Origin: Escherichia phage vB_EcoM_Shinka
Length of the DNA stretch: 64,000 bases
Direction: 5' to 3' (one strand)
Sequence record: MZ502379.1
The notes under the pieces: generated by a model
Told to the model about the DNA's origin: nothing
The model's database searches: none
Seen by the model: the letters and a program-made list of their open reading frames with translations, nothing else
Shown here: positions 1 through 59,075 of the stretch, piece by piece
Layout: each line of letters begins with the position of its first letter
How positions within the stretch are numbered: the first letter of the stretch is position 1
Position numbers and translations under genes: made by a program

Positions 1-2178
1 TTAGGCCGCAAGGGCCTTCATAGTTTTAGCGATTTGGGAAACTTCATCATCACTTAAAGAGTTGCGATAACCGATGAAGTCGGAAACAATGCGGAATTTC
101 TTGGTAAACTCAGCAACCATTTTATCACTGTTTTTTGAAGCATTATTTGATAATACATCAAAAAGATTAGTTACTGTCCAGATGTCATGACCAATGGTAT
201 CTTTTCCACCATTAAAATATACACCCTGTAATGAACTAACCATATTAGCGAGTCGTGTATATTCTTCAGAAACTTCATCTACACTGAAGTACTTCATCAT
301 AAAATCTAACTCAGGATACTTGATAATTTTATCAATATATCGTTTAGCTGAACTTGAATAACCTACATACTTATCATAATCTACATCATCAAAAGCATCT
401 ACATATAAATCACGCAAAGCTTCAAAAATACATTGGCACTGACCGAGTTCTTTTACCTTTTTCTGTAAAAGCGGACGAATAACATAAAATTCATTAATGC
501 CAATAAGATTAGCCATACGAATCAAAATATTCATAGATGGATGACAAAGCGATGTAGTACCATCCATAGAGAAAATATCAGAACGATGCATATACGCTAC
601 ATAACCAGTAATTTCATCTGCTTCTGATGTGAGCGTAAATAATTCCTCTTTTTCCCAGCGCCCGTCTTTAATTTCAAACTTAAATGCTGTAGCAGCTTTA
701 GGACGAGGTGCTTTACTTTTAACTACCTTTGGAATATAACTTTTTACTAAAGCTTCAATTTCTGACAAATAATGAATGTTAACTTCATCACTTTCAAACA
801 TCGCCATAATATCAGGAAGCAAATCAATCTGCGATTCTACTTCTGGATTAATAAACAGAAGGCGTTCATTGTGATGAATATTCAAAGTGTTATTAAATTC
901 ACTATCATCTAATGCACGTGCTAATCCACGGACAATATTAACACGATTTTTAATATTATCAATAACAATATTAATTTTTGTTGTATTAATACCAAACAGA
1001 CGATAACTTGATGCAACGGCTGAAGTTTCATGACTTTGCTTAATGCGCTTCAGTCGAGGGTCAAGATTTACTTCATACACAACTCCTGCATTGCATAACT
1101 TACTATCAGGTTCAAACATGCTTTGCATCTTCTTATATGACAGATTTTTAGTCGTAAATTTGACTGAATTACTAATCATATAATCTCGAGCAGAATACCC
1201 CATCTTCATCAATTCACGATATGTATGACGGGGAGATGTGGATTCTTTAAATCGTTTTACATCTTCATTAAATGCTTTCTCACTGAGTTCTTTAACTCGT
1301 TCAATAATATTTTTACGAGTACGATCATCCAGTGAAAGAGCCTCGCGAGATGGAGCAATATCAAGTGAACCCATTGGAAACTTAATGTAATTCACTTCAT
1401 TGCGAATGCTTAGCCAGTTACGGTCTCTAATAACACCATCGATAGGATAAACAATACCGCCATAGATAGCATATAATCCACCACGATCAGGCCAGTATCT
1501 TTCTGGATTTACACCGTAATAGTCATCAAAATCCGGAAAATAATCAATTTCGCGGTCAAGACCATTAATGATAGCCAAATCTTTGAATGGTCGCATGATA
1601 TAAGAAACTTCATAAGCAAAGTTTCTAAAGTCTTTTTCTTCAACTGGAACTACGATTTCAATACCAGTTTTATCATCTGGACCCATTTCTTTTACGAATG
1701 TAGGTTTAATTTGTGGACCATCACCATCCATGTAAGCTACATAACCACGAATTTCACCTTTATGATACGAAGTAATACTAAATGTATCAGTATAACTAAA
1801 CGGAGATTTAGAACCTAAACCAAACCCGCCAATAAAGTCATTAGATTCAGCCTTAGATGAACTGAAGTATGAATTATATAACCCAGGAGAATTATCATCA
1901 CCCTGAATATCAAAATCACTCATACCCGGACCAAAATCTCGACAAACAAATCGCGGATCTAATCGTCCTGGAACTTGTATGATAAATTTTTCAGGATTTC
2001 CATTAAGTGCATGGGCATCAATCATATTAGTAATTAATTCACGGACTACTGCACGAATCTTGTTTGTATACAAATCAGATGACAGAATTTTAAATACTTT
2101 AGGAGATGCTGTGATGCTAAATGCTTTTGATTTAGAACCATTGCCAAGAATTGTTTCTTTTTCAGTGGTGATAATCAT
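1..2178 (-). CDS. rIIA: rIIA protein, complete (725 aa)
   Basis: Full-length ORF whose stop codon is at window position 1-3; length and sequence match T-even rIIA as I recall it; followed by rIIA.1 and gene 39 in canonical order. Confidence 0.92.
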
Positions 2179-2188
2179 AATTTCCTCA

Positions 2189-2392
2189 TTAATTCATATT
2201 ACGCTTAATAACTTCAGCAACTTCTAGTAATTCATCTTTAGTTGCAGTGTCGGATTGAATTTTATCTCTAATATCTTTAAAGCGGTTTTTAAATTCTTCG
2301 GCTTCTCCCATATCGAAAAAGCGTTGAATGATTCTATATTCTCGATGAACTGCTTTATCAAAAAGTTCTAAATTTACTTTATATGATTTCAT
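2189..2392 (-). CDS. rIIA.1: small hypothetical protein at the rIIA.1 position (67 aa)
   Basis: ORF directly upstream of rIIA, preceded by an early promoter; position matches T4 rIIA.1. Confidence 0.65.
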
Positions 2393-2417
2393 TTCAATAT
2401 CCTCATTTGCCCAATTA

Positions 2418-2447
2418 ATTATACCACATCCTTGTGGTAAAGTAAAC
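2418..2447 (-). promoter_or_regulatory. T4-type early promoter (GTTTAC, 18 nt, TATAAT with TGG extension)
   Basis: Minus strand reads GTTTAC-tttaccacaaggatgtgg-TATAAT; spacer contains the imperfect palindrome ccacaNNNNtgtgg; near-identical copy at 49100-49129. Confidence 0.7.
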
Positions 2448-4267
2448 TACTGGCTCATCCATTCTTTACGAAGGTCAGCATTATCTCCCATGAGCATTTC
2501 AAAAAGCTCTTTCCAGTTCTCAGGAAGTTTAACAACATCATATACTGGGTTTTGAATCATCTCACGATATTCAGATTTTTCCAAAGAGCCAAGTCCTTTA
2601 ATATAACGGATGCTATGTTTAGGTAGAGCATCTTTGGCACTCTCATATTCAGCGACTGTATAAAACCATTCTTGTTTTTTACCGACCTGAGCGATGATTA
2701 CAGGAGTTTTGACAAAGCGAATTCGTCCTTGCTCAAACAATTCTGGCCAATTACTAAAAAACCCGAGCAGAGAAGGATAAATGCTTCCTAGGCCATCATG
2801 GTCAGCATCAGTCATAATAGCGATATTATGATAATTCAAGTTTTCAGCTTTTTCACCGAGAACTAATCCAGTGATTGCGCAAATATCAAATAGTTCTTTG
2901 TTTTTAAGCATATCTGCATAAGACATACCCCAACTGTTGAGAACTTTACCGCGCAATGGATAACCACCGTGAAGTTCTTTATCACGAACATCAATAAGAT
3001 ATCCGATAGCCGAATCACCCTCAGTCAAGAAAAGAGTAGTGTCAGCATCTTTACCACAAAGATTCGCTTTGATATGTTTATGAACCTTAGCTTTAGAAGC
3101 CTTTTTAGCTGCTTTAGTTTCTGCTGCTTTTTCTGCCGCCAATTTACGAGCCAAAGCAGCTTCAATAATCGGCATTAGAATTGCTTCATTATTCAAAATA
3201 GCACGTGAAATCTTTTTAGCATCAAGTTGAATATGACTACGAATTTCGCCAAATGGAGAAGTCAAACGCTCTTTAGTTTGAGAATCAAATCGCATGTTTT
3301 TCATATCACGAACAAACATAACGATTGTCAAACATTCTTTAACGCGTGCTTTAGTCACATCAATTTTGAACTTACGTTTGATTTGTGGAATAAGGTCTTC
3401 ACAAATATCATCCATAACACAGTCAATGTGATGGCCACCATTCTTAGTATGAATGTTATTAACGTATGTTAATTGACGAAAACCATCCGGTGAACGACCA
3501 ACTGCAATAGAACAGTTTTCTTGTTCTTGAACGATAGCATGCTCATCATATTGGCGTGCATATTTCTTAAAATTGCCCTGAACCTTTTTACCATTAAAGG
3601 TAAATTGAATATCAGGATAAACAACAGCAAGTGTCTGGAGACGATCTAATGTAATGTCAAGATAAACTTGAGATAATTCATTAGTTTCAAATGACATAAA
3701 ATCTGGAATGAAAGTAACACGAGTTCCTTTCCATTTTCCAGGAATAGTTTCCCATGATTTATTTTCCATGCCATTTGAACAACGAACTACAATATTATTT
3801 TGACCATCACCAGTTTCACCGACAAACATCACAGAAAAAATGTTTGTCAAACTAGAACCAACACCATTCATACCGCCAGTGACGCGTTCTTTATCATCAC
3901 CGAAGTTACCACCTGCTTTTGGAATAGTCCATGCAGCAACAGGACCAGGAATTTCTTCACCGGTAGGTGTTTTAACCATCGCCTGCGGAATACCACGACC
4001 GTTATCTTCAACTGTTACTTGATTGTTTTTAATAGTAACATTAATTTTATTTGCGAATTTAAACTTAGTACGAATACCTTCATCTACTGAGTTATCGATA
4101 ATTTCATCAATAAGCTTAACAAGACCAGGTACATACTGAACACTTTCCCATTTACCAAACAGAAAGCGCTCATGCATTTCATTAGCAGAAGAGCCAATAT
4201 ACATGCCACTACGCTTTTTGATATGCTCAATATCGCTCAGAATTTTAATTTCATTCTTAATCATCAC
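2447..4267 (-). CDS. 39: DNA topoisomerase II large subunit, GyrB-like ATPase plus Toprim, with the gene-60 segment fused in frame (606 aa)
   Basis: N-terminal GHKL ATPase region; C-terminal 115 aa (NIAIMTDADHDGLGSIYPS...KEWMSQ) correspond to T4 gp60; one uninterrupted ORF. Confidence 0.93.
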   Translation of the reverse strand: MMIKNEIKILSDIEHIKKRSGMYIGSSANEMHERFLFGKWESVQYVPGLVKLIDEIIDNSVDEGIRTKFKFANKINVTIKNNQVTVEDNGRGIPQAMVKTPTGEEIPGPVAAWTIPKAGGNFGDDKERVTGGMNGVGSSLTNIFSVMFVGETGDGQNNIVVRCSNGMENKSWETIPGKWKGTRVTFIPDFMSFETNELSQVYLDITLDRLQTLAVVYPDIQFTFNGKKVQGNFKKYARQYDEHAIVQEQENCSIAVGRSPDGFRQLTYVNNIHTKNGGHHIDCVMDDICEDLIPQIKRKFKIDVTKARVKECLTIVMFVRDMKNMRFDSQTKERLTSPFGEIRSHIQLDAKKISRAILNNEAILMPIIEAALARKLAAEKAAETKAAKKASKAKVHKHIKANLCGKDADTTLFLTEGDSAIGYLIDVRDKELHGGYPLRGKVLNSWGMSYADMLKNKELFDICAITGLVLGEKAENLNYHNIAIMTDADHDGLGSIYPSLLGFFSNWPELFEQGRIRFVKTPVIIAQVGKKQEWFYTVAEYESAKDALPKHSIRYIKGLGSLEKSEYREMIQNPVYDVVKLPENWKELFEMLMGDNADLRKEWMSQ

Positions 4268-41592: not shown

Positions 41593-42063
41593 TTAATCAT
41601 GTGTCCACACCCCATCGGTATTTGACCAAAGTCGCTGATTATCTGATCCTCGCCACAGCTTTTTAGTCGGAAGATTTTTCTCATACTTCCCATCAATAAT
41701 AACATCAACATATTTAAGCATTTCTAGTTGTTTAATATCTTCAAACTTATATCCTGTCCACAACCAAATGCTTTTATTGGGATAAAGATTTTTAATAGTT
41801 TGAACCACAGAGTGAATCACGTCTCTGTTATCAGGATAAAGAGGGTCACCTCCGGTTATAGTTAATCCTTCTATATAATCATTATTCAAACATTCAATTA
41901 ATTGTTCTAGTGTTTCACCAGTGAATGGAACACCATTTCTAGCATTCCATGTTGATTTATTATAACACCCTTCACATTTATGCAAACAACCTGTAACGAA
42001 AAGAACGGTCCTGCAGCCAGGACCATTAACAAAATCGCAAGGATAAAATCTATCATAATTCAT
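41593..42063 (-). CDS. nrdG: anaerobic ribonucleotide reductase activating protein, radical SAM (156 aa)
   Basis: CxxxCxxC-type cluster (GCLHKCEGC); 156 aa; overlaps the nrdD stop. Confidence 0.92.
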   Translation of the reverse strand: MNYDRFYPCDFVNGPGCRTVLFVTGCLHKCEGCYNKSTWNARNGVPFTGETLEQLIECLNNDYIEGLTITGGDPLYPDNRDVIHSVVQTIKNLYPNKSIWLWTGYKFEDIKQLEMLKYVDVIIDGKYEKNLPTKKLWRGSDNQRLWSNTDGVWTHD

Positions 42064-43877
42064 TGGTGCTTAACCCTATGCATGATTTCTTTATTTTTGC
42101 CGAGATTAAATCCGCGTTCGTTCGGATTTCCCAAATAACCACATGTTCTTCTTATTGTGTTCATCTTTTTAGGATCAGTTTCTCCACAAATAGAACAAAC
42201 AAATCCGTTTTCAGTAGGAGTCATTTCATGGGTACTTCCACATGTAAAACATTTATCTACTGGCATATTAACACCAAAATAATCTAAATGTTGTGCAGCA
42301 TAATCCCAGACAGCCTCAAGACCTTTTAAGTTATTTTTCATATCAGGAAGTTCAACATAAGAAATGTGACCACCTGTCGCAATGAAATGATATGGCGCTT
42401 CACGAGAAATCTTTTCAAACGGAGTAACATTTTCTTCTACTGAAACGTGGAAACTGTTAGTGTACCAGCCTTTATCAGTAACATCCTTTACACTTCCATA
42501 TTTTTCTGTATCAAGTTTACAGAAGCGATAGCACAGGTTTTCAGCAGGAGTAGAATACAAACTAAAAGCAAAACCAGTTCTTTCAGTCCACTGTTTAAGA
42601 TGAGCATTCATTTTAGTTAAAATTTCTTGCCCAATATCACGACCGACAAGAATATTCAATTCGTGAATACCAATGTATCCTAAAGACACTGAACTTCTAC
42701 CGTTTTTAAATAACTCAATTATGTCGTCATCAGGTTTAAGACGAACCCCGAATGCACCTTCTTGGTAAAGAATAGGAGCAACAGTTGCTTTAACTCCTTT
42801 TAAGGAACTAATTCTACACATCAAAGCTTCAAAACATAAATCCATTCGTTCATTAAATAATTCGATAAATTTCTGTTCATTGAACTGTGTTCCAATATAA
42901 GAATCTAACGCGATGCGAGGAAGATTCAATGTTACAACACCAAGATTATTACGTCCATCAAGAATTTCATTGCCAGTCGAATCTTTCCATACGCTCAAGA
43001 AACTACGGCAACCCATTGGAGAAACAGGAACAGATGAACCAGTGATAGCTTTATTGTTCTTAGCTGAAATAATATCAGGATACATCCTTTTGCTTGCACA
43101 CTCTAGAGCAAGCTGCTTAATATCATAGTTCGGATCGTCTTTATAAAGATTAACACCTTCTTCAACGAACATAACAAGCTTAGGGAAAATAGGAGTTATC
43201 CCATCACGACCGAGACCTTTAATACGATTTTTCAGAATTGCTTTCTGAATCATTCGTTCAGTCCAGTCAGTTCCCGTACCAAATGTAATTGTTACAAAAG
43301 GAGTCTGTCCGTTTGAACTAAAGAGAGTGTTTACTTCATATTCATAAGCTTGGAATGCATCGTATACATCTTTTTCTGTTTTAGATTGAGCATAATTCAA
43401 CGCATCAGCGATTTGCCATTTTTCTGCATCCTCAATATGTTTTGCATAGGTGCGTTTAACATAAGGAGAAAGTACTTTATCTACATTCGCAAAAGTCGTT
43501 CCGCCATATTGATGGGAAGCAACTTGCGCAGTAATTTGTGCCATAATTGCAGTAGCAACACCGATTGATTTAGGAGTTTCAATCTGTGCATTACCAAGCT
43601 TAAATCCGTTCTCAAGCATTCCTTTTAAATCTACTAAACAACAATTAGTAAAAGGCAATGATATACTGTAATCTAAATCATGAAAATGAATTAATCCAAC
43701 ATTATGGGCATTTACAATATGACTTGGAAGAATACGACAAGCGATATGTTTAGAAACAATACCGGCCATTAAATCTCTTTTTGTTGGAAAGACGCGAGAA
43801 TCTTTGTTGGCGTTTTCTGTATTTAATTCTTTATCTTTATTTGAAATAAAATTTAAAACATCTTTTTCTAAAGACAT
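42060..43877 (-). CDS. nrdD: anaerobic ribonucleoside-triphosphate reductase, uninterrupted (605 aa)
   Basis: C-terminal glycyl-radical region and Zn site (CFTCGSTHEM...CSICG); no intron. Confidence 0.95.
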   Translation of the reverse strand: MSLEKDVLNFISNKDKELNTENANKDSRVFPTKRDLMAGIVSKHIACRILPSHIVNAHNVGLIHFHDLDYSISLPFTNCCLVDLKGMLENGFKLGNAQIETPKSIGVATAIMAQITAQVASHQYGGTTFANVDKVLSPYVKRTYAKHIEDAEKWQIADALNYAQSKTEKDVYDAFQAYEYEVNTLFSSNGQTPFVTITFGTGTDWTERMIQKAILKNRIKGLGRDGITPIFPKLVMFVEEGVNLYKDDPNYDIKQLALECASKRMYPDIISAKNNKAITGSSVPVSPMGCRSFLSVWKDSTGNEILDGRNNLGVVTLNLPRIALDSYIGTQFNEQKFIELFNERMDLCFEALMCRISSLKGVKATVAPILYQEGAFGVRLKPDDDIIELFKNGRSSVSLGYIGIHELNILVGRDIGQEILTKMNAHLKQWTERTGFAFSLYSTPAENLCYRFCKLDTEKYGSVKDVTDKGWYTNSFHVSVEENVTPFEKISREAPYHFIATGGHISYVELPDMKNNLKGLEAVWDYAAQHLDYFGVNMPVDKCFTCGSTHEMTPTENGFVCSICGETDPKKMNTIRRTCGYLGNPNERGFNLGKNKEIMHRVKHQ

Positions 43878-44689
43878 AATTCTAATTTATCCTTTTGAAA
43901 TTCTTCGTCTAAATATGGGTTCCAACCCATTTTAAACCTTTTGATGAAATTATCAATTCTAAATTTCGGTAAGTTTAAATCCGCAAAAATAGATGATTTA
44001 CTTTTAAAATCTGGACTTAAATAATCATATAAAATTTCTGCGTATTTTAACCATAATATACAAGTACCAGATTTAATTGCTCTCGGAGTTTTCCAAGGTT
44101 TTACACCATACATCGGATTTCCACTTCCTTTATGCCTGATAGAAGATGAAATTCCAATTTTAATTTTAGCTTCCTTTGTATGCGAAAATCCACGATGTGG
44201 ATTTTCTTTCCAGTATTTTTTAGAAGCTTCTGATATTTTCTTTCTGGCTAAATTAGTATGATGCTTTCCATAAAATCCATGATTTTTGCCTTTATTACGA
44301 TTTCTTTTAATCATGGTTATTGATTGCTTTTCTCTAGTTTCTTTAGAAGGAGAAATACCATATGTTGTAAATTGGCCATCAGCATATGCTAAATTAAAAT
44401 ACTCTTTATTCCATACATCTTTTTCTATATTCTTTTGAAATTCAGCTTCAATGCTAGTTATTTGTTCATCTCCGACTAATTGAAAATATAATATTTCAAC
44501 TTTCGGCGTTTCTTTCAATAAGGCTTTTTGAAATTCGGAAGATGACGAAGACGAATAATAAAATTTACCATTTTTATCAATAATATTCGTTCCATCAAAA
44601 GTGCAATTGGTTTTACTTCCAATGTAATAATATGGTGGGATTTTAGCATTAATTCTATTAATAAATGATAGTTTATATACTACATTCAT
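43868..44689 (-). CDS. GIY-YIG homing endonuclease, Seg-like (273 aa)
   Basis: N-terminal YKLSFINRINAKIPPYYYIGS GIY-YIG module; NUMOD3-like repeats (GFYGKHHTNLARKK, GSGNPMYGVK); overlaps the nrdD start. Confidence 0.7.
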   Translation of the reverse strand: MNVVYKLSFINRINAKIPPYYYIGSKTNCTFDGTNIIDKNGKFYYSSSSSSEFQKALLKETPKVEILYFQLVGDEQITSIEAEFQKNIEKDVWNKEYFNLAYADGQFTTYGISPSKETREKQSITMIKRNRNKGKNHGFYGKHHTNLARKKISEASKKYWKENPHRGFSHTKEAKIKIGISSSIRHKGSGNPMYGVKPWKTPRAIKSGTCILWLKYAEILYDYLSPDFKSKSSIFADLNLPKFRIDNFIKRFKMGWNPYLDEEFQKDKLELCL

Positions 44690-55626: not shown

Positions 55627-55967
55627 CTAGTACTCAATCCTCGATTATAAGAATCTACCAAACGGTCAACCATTGAATGACAAGCGGCTTTATCTTTCTC
55701 CTCCGCAACTGAACATTCTAAGGTATTCCACTTTTTAGCATATCGTTTTAACAATGTATCATTTTTGTATCTGCTTGATTTATCTCTTTCTCCGTCTTTA
55801 TATGCATATATTAATTTCTGCGCAAATTCAGCTTGACATGCTTTATTTTTCCCGCAATAATCCGCTGCAGTACGGTTTACATATTCTCTAATTTCAGTAT
55901 ATGATGATGTATCTGCTAACGCAGAAAATGAAATTAATCCTATACATAAAACCAAAATTTTAGTCAT
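55623..55967 (-). CDS. vs: secreted protein at the vs position (114 aa)
   Basis: Signal peptide MTKILVLCIGLISFSALA; position upstream of regB; identity with Vs not verified. Confidence 0.55.
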   Translation of the reverse strand: MTKILVLCIGLISFSALADTSSYTEIREYVNRTAADYCGKNKACQAEFAQKLIYAYKDGERDKSSRYKNDTLLKRYAKKWNTLECSVAEEKDKAACHSMVDRLVDSYNRGLSTR

Positions 55968-56505
55968 TTACTATTTCCAAAAGTTTATTATTTTTAAGGT
56001 AATTAGCCTTTTCTAGGACTTCAGAAGCATATTTAGAACCTGCTTTAACATTCCATCCCGAATTATAAGAGGATATTGCTTTTCTTATATCGCCCTTATG
56101 TATATTTAACCAATAAGAAAGTTCAATGTACGCCCAGGAAGCTGAATTGGACCGTTTATTCAACATTCTTTTTATTTCAGCATCGGTCATATTATAACCA
56201 AGTTCCTTAACTCTTGCTCGCATAGTAGGCAAATAATTTTGGAACATTCCGTAGGCGTGATGCTTTGCTTTAGATTTTAAATTAACTCCGCCAGAGCTTT
56301 CTTGCCATAAAATAGCAGCCATTATATGACCCAATCCGCTCTTGTGGATATTTTTGTGTGTTTTATATTTTCCATCCTTAGAAAATTGTTCCCCGAATTG
56401 ATACGCGTAACGCATGTTATCGAGTTGGACATTACTGAAAGTATGCTCGGAGCTATGTGCCATCATTGAAATGGCCAATAGACCAGCGAGTAGTGCTTTT
56501 CTCAT
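55960..56505 (-). CDS. secreted SLT-domain lytic transglycosylase-like protein (181 aa)
   Basis: Signal peptide; ILWQESSGG (catalytic E-S), GMFQ and SYNSG motifs. Confidence 0.65.
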   Translation of the reverse strand: MRKALLAGLLAISMMAHSSEHTFSNVQLDNMRYAYQFGEQFSKDGKYKTHKNIHKSGLGHIMAAILWQESSGGVNLKSKAKHHAYGMFQNYLPTMRARVKELGYNMTDAEIKRMLNKRSNSASWAYIELSYWLNIHKGDIRKAISSYNSGWNVKAGSKYASEVLEKANYLKNNKLLEIVND

Positions 56506-56512
56506 GCTTACC

Positions 56513-56974
56513 TCATTGAGTTTTAATTACTGCTTTAGAAGCCTTTCCTGGTAAACGACGACTGTTGATAATTGCCATCCTGCATTGAAGTGACGGGTCT
56601 TTGAACTTCTCATTAGGCTTACAAACCGTAAATCCAAGCCAAAGATTTCCATCTGTGATTTCTAAACGTCCAGGACGATATTCAACCCCATCAATAAAAT
56701 CCTCGTCAATGTCAGGACGCGGAGGCATACTCAGGAATTCATTAACTTCTAAAACATGGTCTTTTATTTTATGGAATAATTCAAAAACATATGTCTCATC
56801 AATCTCCCGTTGAATTGCACGATCAAGAAGATGTTGAGAATATTTTAGATGAAACGATGAGACTCCTGCTGCTTTTGATGCCTCACGAATCTCATTGTTA
56901 ATTTGACGAAACTCCGACTCAAAGTGACGACGAAGCTTATTTCGACGGATAAAAACTTCTGTATTGATAGTCAT
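56513..56974 (-). CDS. regB: RegB endoribonuclease (153 aa)
   Basis: 153 aa; sequence consistent with T4 RegB; early promoter immediately upstream. Confidence 0.9.
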   Translation of the reverse strand: MTINTEVFIRRNKLRRHFESEFRQINNEIREASKAAGVSSFHLKYSQHLLDRAIQREIDETYVFELFHKIKDHVLEVNEFLSMPPRPDIDEDFIDGVEYRPGRLEITDGNLWLGFTVCKPNEKFKDPSLQCRMAIINSRRLPGKASKAVIKTQ

Positions 56975-57033: not shown

Positions 57034-57354
57034 TTATTCTTTAAATCTAATCAATTTATTCATAGACTTTGAAACTTCTGCACGAACCTCATGTAAGTTT
57101 TTAAGCTGTTCAAGACGCTGCTCATAGTAAGCAATTTCATCTTCTTCGAGACAGTCCTGTGAATCTTCTTTAAGATAGCGTGCATAGTCCTGGAAAGCTT
57201 TACGGACTACTTCCTGGAAGTCATCAAGACTTTGAATTTTCTTAGGAGCGGCAGATACACGACGAGGGGCAGTATAATACTCATAACCAAACCCTGCACT
57301 TAATTGAGCCATTAGTATTTTTCCTCTGGTTGGAACACAGCACGGCAAGCCCAC
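57034..57354 (-). CDS. hypothetical protein (106 aa)
   Basis: ORF upstream of regB. Confidence 0.5.
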
Positions 57355-57614
57355 ATACTTGCTTCTTTGAGTTTCGTTTTAGCAATAGTTAACTGATCGA
57401 GGCTTTCGGCGTAATTCTTCGCGAGTTCATCATCTTCACAGCTATCAAATGCTTCCCAGAATTCATCGTATAAAGCGTCAAAGATAAGTCCTAAACGAAC
57501 TTCAGCGTCTTTGATAGCATTCACTTTACCGATTTTCTCTTCAGTATGCGGCTTATAACCTTTAATGTCTTCAATCATATTTGACTTCCTCACCAGTACA
57601 TAAATCGTATTCAA
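57312..57614 (-). CDS. hypothetical protein (100 aa)
   Basis: ORF upstream of regB. Confidence 0.5.
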
Positions 57615-57792
57615 CTAAACGAATAGGTTCATGAATGCCATATCCCTGAACAGAAATTTCTGTAGTAGGATAAATTCCATCAATATCACCCATATTCCAC
57701 GCTTCGTTAAATTGCTGTTCGCCTGAATTACTAAACCACTCGGCGAAAGCATTTAGCACATCTTTAGAACCTTCAATAATTATCTTTGCCAT
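57571..57792 (-). CDS. hypothetical protein (73 aa)
   Basis: ORF upstream of regB. Confidence 0.45.
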   Translation of the reverse strand: MAKIIIEGSKDVLNAFAEWFSNSGEQQFNEAWNMGDIDGIYPTTEISVQGYGIHEPIRLVEYDLCTGEEVKYD

Positions 57793-58154
57793 TATAAGCT
57801 CTCAGTAAAGGTACGAGCAATAACGTCGCGCTGCTGTTCCGGAGTCAGAGAGTTAAAGCGAACTGCATAACCGGATACACGGATGGTCAGCTGCGGATAT
57901 TTTTCCGGATGCTTAACTGCATCTTCCAGAGTTTCACGACGCAGAACGTTAACGTTTAGGTGTTGACCACCTTCAATTTTAACTGTAGGCTGTGGCTCAA
58001 TTTCAATTTCACGAGCATGCAAACCGTAGAAAATTTCTGGGTCTACAAAAGAGTCCTCTTTAAAGGTTTTAGAGACAATAATTCGTGCTTGAATACCATC
58101 TTCAAAATAAATAGTACCTTTATGTGTGCCTTCAAGAATTTGATATGCTTTCAT
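57792..58154 (-). CDS. autonomous glycyl radical cofactor, GrcA/YfiD-like (120 aa)
   Basis: C-terminal [60 protein letters not shown] is the glycyl-radical module as in E. coli GrcA; its DNA is visibly more GC-rich. Confidence 0.85.
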
Positions 58155-58161
58155 ATAAACC

Positions 58162-58488
58162 TCAATTAGAAAATAAATTTATCCAAGATTGTTCTTTAAT
58201 TAAAAATGGCTCAGAATCATATGCCATTAAACTTTGGGTGATTAGTCCTTTAAAAGGTCCATCAATAAATTCCATGGTAAAATATGGAATTTTATTCATT
58301 AACTGTGCGTTAGGAGCAGTGCACAAAACTCTGCATCCTTTGAATACACCTTTTTGTAATTTGTATTGCTTGGGATAAAATTCGCTTAAAATGTTGTTAT
58401 TTGCCAAAATTTCAAAATGATTTACCAATTTATTTTTAATAGTTTTTGGCGAAAAATAGAGATATTCGAAAAGCTGTGTGTCTGTCAT
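58162..58488 (-). CDS. hypothetical protein (about 108 aa from MTDTQLF)
   Basis: Start corrected to the ATG that overlaps the upstream stop (ATGA). Confidence 0.45.
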
Positions 58489-59075
58489 TATTGCATTCCG
58501 ATTACGAAAAACTGTGGACGAGTAATACCACCAATGCAACATTTACTATTACAGCAGTAGTGTACAGTGTCAATATGGACGCTATAAATCTTATCCATAT
58601 CAGGAGATTTGACAGGCTCATCAATTATATACAAAATTCGCGAAAGCGATAAACCTCTGAACTTGCTTCCTTTATTACCAATAAAACTGCGCACAGAATC
58701 AGTAAATAAACGAAAACGTATATCATCATTAGAATAACGCGAAAATTCCTTTTTAATGTTATTTGCAGAAATTTTAGCGTAAGCTGAAGTATTAGAAAGA
58801 ACAATAACTGTTCCGCCATCATACAGCCAATTAGCAGCAAAGTTAGTCACAGCAATTGATTTACCGGATTGACGTCCACCATCTATACGAAGTGTGCAAT
58901 ACTGTTTAAGTAAGTCTTCAAATGGTGGGATATAATCGTTTTTACAAATTTCTTCTACTCTAGCATCAGAATGGTGTGTAAAAGCATTCATCAGGGATAG
59001 ATAAGGACCAGTTAAAAATGTTCTCATTTTATTCTCTCTAAATTTGGGCCATTCCGTGGCGCATGAATTGTCCAT
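58488..59075 (-). CDS. small P-loop NTPase-like protein (195 aa; start may be MRTF at 59027)
   Basis: Walker A-like DGGRQSGKS and Walker B-like ILYIIDE. Confidence 0.5.
   Translation of the reverse strand: MDNSCATEWPKFRENKMRTFLTGPYLSLMNAFTHHSDARVEEICKNDYIPPFEDLLKQYCTLRIDGGRQSGKSIAVTNFAANWLYDGGTVIVLSNTSAYAKISANNIKKEFSRYSNDDIRFRLFTDSVRSFIGNKGSKFRGLSLSRILYIIDEPVKSPDMDKIYSVHIDTVHYCCNSKCCIGGITRPQFFVIGMQ

Follow-up and report, generated by a model that had tools for sequence, protein, structure and literature searches.

The gene vs.6 of Escherichia phage vB_EcoM_Shinka lies on the minus strand of a 64,000-nucleotide (nt) stretch of sequence record MZ502379.1 (hereafter the window, to which all positions refer). 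The explanation that best accounts for it, with a probability of roughly 85%, is a joint one: vs.6 encodes a phage GrcA-like glycyl-radical cofactor (Y06I) that rescues host pyruvate formate-lyase (PFL), and the tract encoding its radical domain has been overwritten by DNA of the host gene grcA. The gene and its function are themselves already known, as T4-type vs.6/Y06I of the GrcA-like spare-part group; an earlier description of the mosaic was not found in the searchable literature, and a prior mention in key T4 papers is possible. The parts of the gene on which the argument turns are as follows.

57792-58154, minus strand: vs.6 open reading frame (ORF) of 120 amino acids (aa), phage autonomous glycyl-radical cofactor (T4 Y06I/GrcA homologue), from the ORF list, megablast, Pfam and PDB
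57977-58154, minus strand: phage-type, AT-rich 5' part with a GC of 0.34 (codons 1-59), homologous to the N-terminal region of GrcA but diverged
57792-57976, minus strand: host-derived tract of 185 nt, codons 60-120 and stop, 97.3% identical to E. coli grcA
57820-57956, minus strand: longest exact match to E. coli grcA, 137 nt, flanked by mismatches at 57819 and 57957
57792-57806, minus strand: 3' edge of vs.6, the last 15 nt, a variable patch edge where differences from E. coli cluster in the alignments

The host-derived tract encodes the glycyl-radical domain (EGGQHLNV...RVSGYAV...TESL). By blastn, gene nt 179-363 (window 57976-57792) match grcA at 97.3% identity (E=2e-81) in each of 5,426 complete E. 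coli genomes, and over residues 60-120 the protein has 100% identity to E. coli GrcA. An initial annotation of this DNA had equated the C-terminal 60 or so residues with the radical domain of E. coli GrcA and had proposed a nucleotide comparison with grcA as a check; the protein match is exact, the raised identity is found in every E. coli genome, and the boundary then placed at 57980 lies at most 4 nt from the measured edge at 57976. In pairwise alignment, similarity to grcA drops sharply upstream of ...AAAA|TTGAAGGTGG and again right after the stop codon. Between these edges there are five mismatches in 185 nt, all synonymous and three of them within the last 10 nt; the last codons read GAG AGC TTA TAA in the window and GAA AGC CTG TAA in E. 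coli grcA. Among hosts, identity of the tract is 0.97 to E. coli, 0.96 to another Escherichia species, 0.90 to Citrobacter and about 0.84 to Salmonella and Klebsiella, and over 165 nt it agrees with E. coli at 163 positions and with K. pneumoniae at 143. A donor other than grcA was ruled out: since places outside grcA in E. coli genomes match at only 60-80%, and pflB and tdcE match the tract of a related phage at about 80%, the donor is grcA. Just inside the 5' edge, in the first 20 nt of the host-like tract, a terminator scan flagged on the non-coding strand an inverted repeat AGGTG-TTGAC-CACCT (57958-57972, plus strand; from GGTGGTCAACACCT, codons for GGQH), which is present in host and phage sequences.

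Composition also sets the tract apart. The guanine-plus-cytosine (GC) content of 57792-57980 is 0.460 against a window mean of 0.342 (standard deviation 0.041 in 189-nt sliding windows), a value reached by only 0.14% of such sliding windows, and the 189-nt segment with the highest GC of the whole 64 kb (57810-57998, GC 0.487) overlaps the tract. The compositional shift noticed at the outset is thus borne out quantitatively. The tract itself has a GC content of 0.48, the E. coli tract 0.49 and the N-terminal part of vs.6 0.34; at third codon positions, the tract has a GC of 0.40, compared with 0.20 for the 5' half of the gene and 0.24 for the 50 long ORFs of the window. Codon choice is host-like as well, with CTG for four of six leucines (background 9%) and CCG for all three prolines (background 16%). 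In the Klebsiella phages of the genus Jiaodavirus, GC is 0.56-0.57 in the tract and 0.35 in the N-terminal part, so that compositional patchiness is in line with the donor both for the window tract, compared with E. coli, and for the Jiaodavirus tracts, compared with their own N-terminal parts.

The comparison was extended to 21 phage copies of vs.6, that of the window included, from Tequatro-, Mosig-, Jiaoda-, Slopek-, Pseudoteven-, Krisch-, T5-like (Tequintavirus), Asterius- and Aeromonas phages, and to host grcA genes from 80 loci of a genome collection, mostly Enterobacterales, together with E. coli, K. pneumoniae and K. aerogenes. Two of the host records call for comment: CP125156.1, a K. 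pneumoniae record of 5.37 Mb that bears the label 'plasmid unnamed2', is clearly a chromosome, and in LR134122.1 (K. aerogenes NCTC10006 'plasmid 2') the annotated grcA coding sequence (CDS) is truncated by one A too many in an A-run, probably a sequencing error. Over 180 nt, Tequatrovirus and Mosigvirus tracts share 96-98% identity with E. coli grcA; that of OES_C-2 reaches 99.5% over a 185-nt match, and in RB32 the first 164 nt are identical. The Jiaodavirus tract has the same starting position, and its residues are of the Klebsiella type, LLDAVEH in place of LEDAVKH. In Nispero and PSE-D1 it agrees with K. pneumoniae grcA at 161 of 165 nt and with E. coli at 144-146, and the other two Jiaodavirus copies agree with K. 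pneumoniae at 154 and 158 of 165 nt. Counted over phage records, an identity of at least 95% to E. coli grcA is reached by 638, and one of 95-99% to K. pneumoniae grcA by 106; to the gene of the other host, either group is only 80-90% identical. A Salmonella-type tract was sought in Salmonella phages but not found, identity to S. enterica grcA staying at or below 90% in every phage record. Alignments of phage with host grcA all have their first base within grcA nt 199-202, and none of the phage records that match E. coli or K. pneumoniae grcA has a 5' half resembling that of the host gene. The 'Salmonella' phage PSE-D1 and the K. aerogenes phage Nispero, both Jiaodavirus, have a K. pneumoniae-type tract, and the Yersinia-isolated Tequatrovirus PYPS2T has an E. 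coli tract. Since these are at odds with the isolation host, the tract follows the history of the phage lineage. Records named as Hafnia, Proteus and Pseudomonas phages, in which Vs.6 is 98-99% identical to the window protein, seem to be genomes of the Tequatrovirus type whose host labels are unexpected.

The remainder of the gene behaves differently, its 5' halves grouping by phage taxonomy. Nucleotide identity of the 5' part to the window is 0.98 in RB32, 0.90 in Mosigvirus, 0.74-0.76 in Jiaodavirus and about 0.60 in Slopek- and Pseudotevenvirus. Between the window and Mosigvirus, the tract stands out as an island of 0.97-1.00 identity, with downstream vs.5 at about 0.70. The two parts of vs.6 are therefore incongruent, the tract grouping by host and the rest by phage lineage, more weakly so for Klebsiella with Jiaodavirus. 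In neighbour-joining bootstraps of the tracts, Escherichia groups with Tequatro- and Mosigvirus at 99%, and monophyly of the Tevenvirinae phages is recovered in 0 of 300 replicates. At the opposite edge, the last 10-15 nt of vs.6 carry phage-type synonymous codons (GAG AGT CTA/TTA) in common with Slopek- and Pseudotevenvirus, and the 3' endpoints vary among OES_C-2, fFiEco06, T4, RB32, the window and Mosigvirus, with all four combinations of GAA/GAG and AGC/AGT represented. Incongruence of a similar kind was seen among the vs.6 genes of phages EC-F1, Miller and Slopekvirus 150040 (at 301-663 in the three sequences): identity of EC-F1 to Miller, of the same genus, is 0.89 in the N-terminal part and 0.83 in the radical-domain part, and identity of EC-F1 to Slopekvirus 150040 is 0.82 and 0.94, respectively. 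This suggests further exchange at the same breakpoint, with donors not closely related to any sampled host (best 0.83-0.84).

The near-identity to grcA might instead reflect no recent transfer at all, but vertical inheritance in phages under selection on the protein, the codon usage or the mRNA. The radical-domain protein is indeed extremely conserved across Enterobacterales and phages. At the synonymous level, however, 55 of 59 same-amino-acid codons of the window agree with E. coli, compared with 30 of 59 in Slopekvirus (Fisher p=3e-7), and old phage copies that encode nearly the same peptide match E. coli at only about 50% of such codons. The copies of other phage lineages are diverged, with 59-83% identity to E. 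coli grcA and no more than 84% to any of the hosts sampled; among these lineages, Krischvirus, T5-like phages and Asteriusvirus, isolated on E. coli, encode nearly the same domain at 65-75% nucleotide identity to E. coli grcA, and the function of the protein therefore needs no nucleotide identity. Tequatrovirus and Jiaodavirus tracts, moreover, each fit their own host genus at synonymous sites, the phage tracts are not monophyletic in the bootstraps, and their composition and codon choice resemble the host and not the rest of the phage. Purely vertical inheritance is thus extremely unlikely.

A second possibility is a one-step capture, in which a host radical-domain fragment was fused to an unrelated phage N-terminal peptide to give a new chimera. 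The restriction of nucleotide similarity with grcA to the 3' 185 nt, and the step in GC at the same edge, would both fit such an event. The N-terminal half is, however, itself homologous to the N-terminal region of GrcA: taken alone, aa 22-60 match GrcA 28-67 with 35% identity over 40 aa (BLASTP, E=5e-6); the last 31 codons of the 5' part show only 46% nucleotide identity to E. coli grcA. Profile TIGR04365 (GrcA, NCBIfam) likewise aligns residues 20-120 of Vs.6 with its positions 25-126. Together these matches argue that the whole vs.6 ORF is a full-length, N-terminally diverged GrcA homologue and not a host domain on an unrelated peptide. Full-length diverged vs.6 is also found in Slopek-, Pseudoteven-, Krisch-, T5-like, Asterius- and Aeromonas phages, with old, diverged radical domains spread across T4-like, T5-like and jumbo phages, so that the architecture is older than the patch, and the phage-type codons common to several genera persist in the last 10-15 nt. 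Fusion of a captured fragment is therefore very unlikely. Of the recent host capture advanced in the initial annotation, the part that stands is that the 3' half is host-like and recently host-derived; the notion of a captured module does not, given the homology of the N-terminal half to GrcA. A longer version of the protein is annotated in Morganella phage vB_Mm5 (37-690), where the vs.6-like part of a 217-aa CDS starts at an internal 'MYGYQV...' preceded by about 97 extra in-frame residues; either the start was called too far upstream or the protein is fused to an additional upstream domain. The gene directly downstream encodes an HNH endonuclease.

The mosaic is best accounted for by partial replacement within an older phage gene. 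An ancient phage-lineage gene is the source of the AT-rich 5' part and of the last few codons, and some 170-185 nt of its radical-domain DNA have been replaced by host chromosomal grcA, most simply by homologous recombination or gene conversion. The boundary on the 5' side marks the point where homology between phage and host begins, the sequence upstream presumably being too dissimilar to recombine, and the 3' edge may have been kept because the vs.5 start codon and the ribosome-binding region overlap it. Host DNA is degraded by T-even phages, whose very active recombination system accepts short homologies; a conversion of this kind is therefore mechanistically unsurprising. E. coli grcA itself shows no discontinuity relative to its relatives (N-terminal part/C-terminal part: Citrobacter 0.88/0.93, Salmonella 0.85/0.84), and the direction of transfer is therefore from host to phage. 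As the E. coli allele is found in Tequatrovirus and Mosigvirus and the K. pneumoniae allele in Jiaodavirus, replacement has occurred independently at least twice, with an Escherichia and a Klebsiella allele, respectively. The E. coli-type tract either entered Tequatrovirus and Mosigvirus separately or spread between the two genera. It is tempting to speculate further that the tract is repeatedly overwritten by the grcA allele of the main growth host, and that this refreshment is possibly adaptive, by matching the host PFL-activating enzyme PflA and the PFL protein PflB and so keeping PFL-derived formate available to the anaerobic reductase, but we regard this extension as tentative and rather doubtful.

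As to function, Pfam profile Gly_radical (PF01228) matches residues 61-101 of Vs.6 (E=2.8e-18, 66.8 bits, cutoff 22.2). In a phmmer search of PDB the best match is E. coli GrcA (6OWR, E=8.6e-42, Vs.6 residues 22-120), followed by PflB 697-759 (1H16/1CM5, E=5e-26), over the whole radical domain, and then by other glycyl radical enzymes of the PFL family. The radical motif RVSGYAV is of the PFL type, and the domain is colinear with PflB 697-759. According to PMC8683613, which cites Wagner et al. 2001, only two spare-part proteins have been validated, E. coli YfiD and T4 Y06I; the PFL-activating enzyme places a glycyl radical on either of them, and the activated protein forms a complex with oxygen-cleaved PFL and restores its activity in vitro. 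The radical domain of Vs.6 being residue for residue that of E. coli GrcA, and the protein differing from T4 Y06I at one aa, the window protein most likely works by the same mechanism, as far as can be judged from sequence. Host PflA would install the radical on the glycine of RVSGYAV, and radical-bearing Vs.6 would dock on host PFL molecules from which oxygen has cleaved off the C-terminal radical domain, bringing back catalysis; PFL rescued in this manner would sustain the fermentative output of acetyl-CoA and formate in micro-oxic infected cells. The role of spare part for PflB put forward in the initial annotation accords with what PMC8683613 reports for T4 Y06I, one residue from the window protein.

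A role in repair of the phage anaerobic (class III) ribonucleotide reductase NrdD had been suggested at the same time. Vs.6 would in that case replace the oxygen-cleaved C-terminal segment of NrdD after activation by NrdG. The window does encode both partners (NrdG at 41593-42063, NrdD at 42060-43877), vs.6 homologues adjoin nrdD or nrdG in Aeromonas phages and Asteriusvirus, a nucleotide-metabolism role has been speculated for vs.6, which is conserved in T4-like phages (Nolan et al. 2006, PMC1524935), and spare parts for other glycyl radical enzymes have been called conceivable (PMC8683613). Yet the best BLASTP match between Vs.6 and the window NrdD has E=5.4, with nothing at the C-terminus, and no class III ribonucleotide reductase structure is among the 34 PDB matches to Vs.6 (E<=0.01), whereas PflB 697-759 aligns at E=5e-26. 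The radical motifs differ as well (RVSGYAV in Vs.6, RTCGYLG in NrdD), and the tract consists of host grcA sequence, shaped by evolution to suit PflB and PflA. Direct repair of NrdD consequently finds no footing in the comparisons and is highly improbable.

Formate supply explains the synteny equally well. PFL is the fermentative source of formate, and formate is the electron donor of the class III ribonucleotide reductases of T4 and E. coli (PMC4390871). PFL-derived formate could accordingly serve as reductant for the phage NrdD, and upkeep of PFL would then support the anaerobic supply of deoxynucleoside triphosphates; such an indirect link from vs.6 through PFL and formate to NrdD is plausible. 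In Aeromonas phages (e.g. AsFcp_4, 2001-3453) the vs.6 homologue lies within an nrdD-nrdG-vs.6-nrdC-nrdH cluster, and in the jumbo Asteriusvirus Escherichia phage UE-S1 (1-657) it lies directly downstream of nrdD. This recurrent linkage suggests a functional connection.

Several points weigh against parts of this interpretation. Vs.6 misses the equivalog threshold of TIGR04365 (153.3 bits, cutoff 170 bits) because its N-terminal part has diverged, and sequence thus does not establish strict equivalence to GrcA, 'phage GrcA-like paralogue' being the best label. An in vivo phenotype of vs.6 during infection was not found in the literature searched. The rationale involving formate and NrdD rests on synteny in other phages, vs.6 of the window being some 14 kb from nrdD. 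The tract is short (165-185 nt), the Klebsiella comparison consists of one K. pneumoniae and one K. aerogenes allele, and the clade of Klebsiella with Jiaodavirus has a bootstrap of only 58-62%. Among E. coli phages, finally, many host-to-phage events and a single event followed by spread between phages are inseparable here.

Some of these points would also suit a protein acting mainly as a decoy or modulator, which titrates host PflA or competes with GrcA and PflB and thereby redirects fermentation. A radical domain identical to that of the host would be a perfect substrate for PflA, the N-terminal region is divergent with an N-terminus 7 residues shorter, the score falls under the GrcA cutoff, and in vivo data on Vs.6 were lacking from the literature searched. 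T4 Y06I is nevertheless reported (PMC8683613) to reactivate cleaved PFL in vitro, and vs.6 is kept in many lytic phage lineages beside genes of anaerobic nucleotide metabolism. A decoy function is accordingly considered unlikely.

The genomic setting of vs.6 is that of a T4-type locus. The start codon ATG is at 58154-58152 and the stop codon TAA at 57794-57792, and the gene is packed among small early phage genes in the order vs.7-vs.6-vs.5-vs.4, near regB. By megablast vs.6 matches 741 phage records, nearly all Tevenvirinae, in which it is annotated as vs.6, grcA or 'pyruvate formate-lyase', many being called grcA/vs.6. The closest nucleotide match is Escherichia phage slur04 (99.7% identical); the protein is identical to Vs.6 of RB32 (100% aa) and one aa different from that of T4 (UniProt Y06I), which places the window in a Tequatrovirus. 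Two short features bound the gene.

57790-57794, minus strand: TAATG overlap, formed by the vs.6 stop codon (57794-57792) and the vs.5 start codon ATG (57792-57790), with one base in common
58160-58163, minus strand: GAGG motif resembling a Shine-Dalgarno sequence, 5 nt before the vs.6 ATG, a putative function judged from position only

The overlap with vs.5 (57571-57792), the ORF downstream, suggests translational coupling, which would limit the 3' end of the patch. Upstream, the TGA stop codon (58164-58162) of vs.7 (58162-58542) overlaps the GAGG motif. A scan for promoters and terminators around vs.6 gave counts no higher than in shuffled sequence. Two genes downstream of vs.6, in the position of T4 vs.4, ORF 57312-57614 (minus strand) matches Pfam Acb2_Tad1_hairpin (E=1.2e-19) and is predicted to be Acb2, the cyclic-nucleotide sponge that counters CBASS (cyclic-oligonucleotide-based antiphage signalling system). 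Beyond it lie regB (56513-56974) and vs.1 (55960-56505), with an SLT domain. Elsewhere in the window, nrdD (42060-43877, minus strand) is a single uninterrupted ORF of 605 aa; nrdD of T4 is split by a group I intron. The end of ORF 43868-44689 (minus strand, 273 aa) overlaps the start of nrdD, and this ORF, with a NUMOD3 match (E=6.5e-7), looks like a homing endonuclease.

The vs.6 gene thus offers a very clean and quantifiable case of host chromosomal DNA overwriting part of a lytic-phage gene, in the best-studied group of such phages, with a donor specific to the host genus (E. coli or K. pneumoniae) and a shared breakpoint. It bears on how frequently strictly virulent phages recombine with the host DNA that they degrade, on how auxiliary metabolic genes remain compatible with their host partners, and on the use of short host-identical tracts to infer the principal host of a phage lineage. 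It also sharpens a metabolic hypothesis, in which phage GrcA keeps PFL active and thereby provides formate to NrdD. Were the tentative idea of repeated overwriting true, the tract would represent a natural, datable record of recombination between lytic phages and the host chromosome, a marker of host of origin, and a handle for measuring rates of host-to-phage gene conversion.

Among known systems, T4 Vs.6 (Y06I) is the same gene at the same locus, identical to that of the window at 119 of 120 residues and 354 of 363 nt; it differs in having H73 where the window has R73, as in E. coli GrcA, and in a synonymous pattern at the 3' end of the host-like tract slightly unlike that of the window. E. 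coli GrcA/YfiD (6OWR; TIGR04365) has the same motif RVSGYAV, is 100% identical in protein and 97% in DNA over residues 60-120, and is homologous over residues 20-59, whereas the N-terminal part of the window protein is about 35% identical and 7 residues shorter, and the gene belongs to a phage, has an AT-rich 5' half and is packed translationally among early phage genes. The C-terminal glycyl-radical domain of PflB (697-759; 1H16/2PFL), for which Vs.6 and GrcA stand in, aligns with Vs.6 end to end (E=5e-26), Vs.6 differing as a stand-alone protein of 14 kDa. The closest evolutionary parallel concerns psbA and psbD of marine cyanophages, for which patchiness in %G+C, recombination with host alleles inside the gene and phage copies that cluster with their host group have been described (PMC1484495; Zeidner et al. 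2005; Sullivan et al. 2006). In both cases an auxiliary metabolic gene of a phage is mosaic with host alleles. Unlike psbA and psbD, vs.6 is a gene of T-even coliphages in which a single short block of some 170-185 nt, whose 5' breakpoint is common to two genera, reaches 98-100% identity to its donor, and only the direction from host to phage is evident. The evolutionary pattern of vs.6 is therefore of a known kind, intragenic recombination between host and phage, of which its host-tracking mosaic is a new example.

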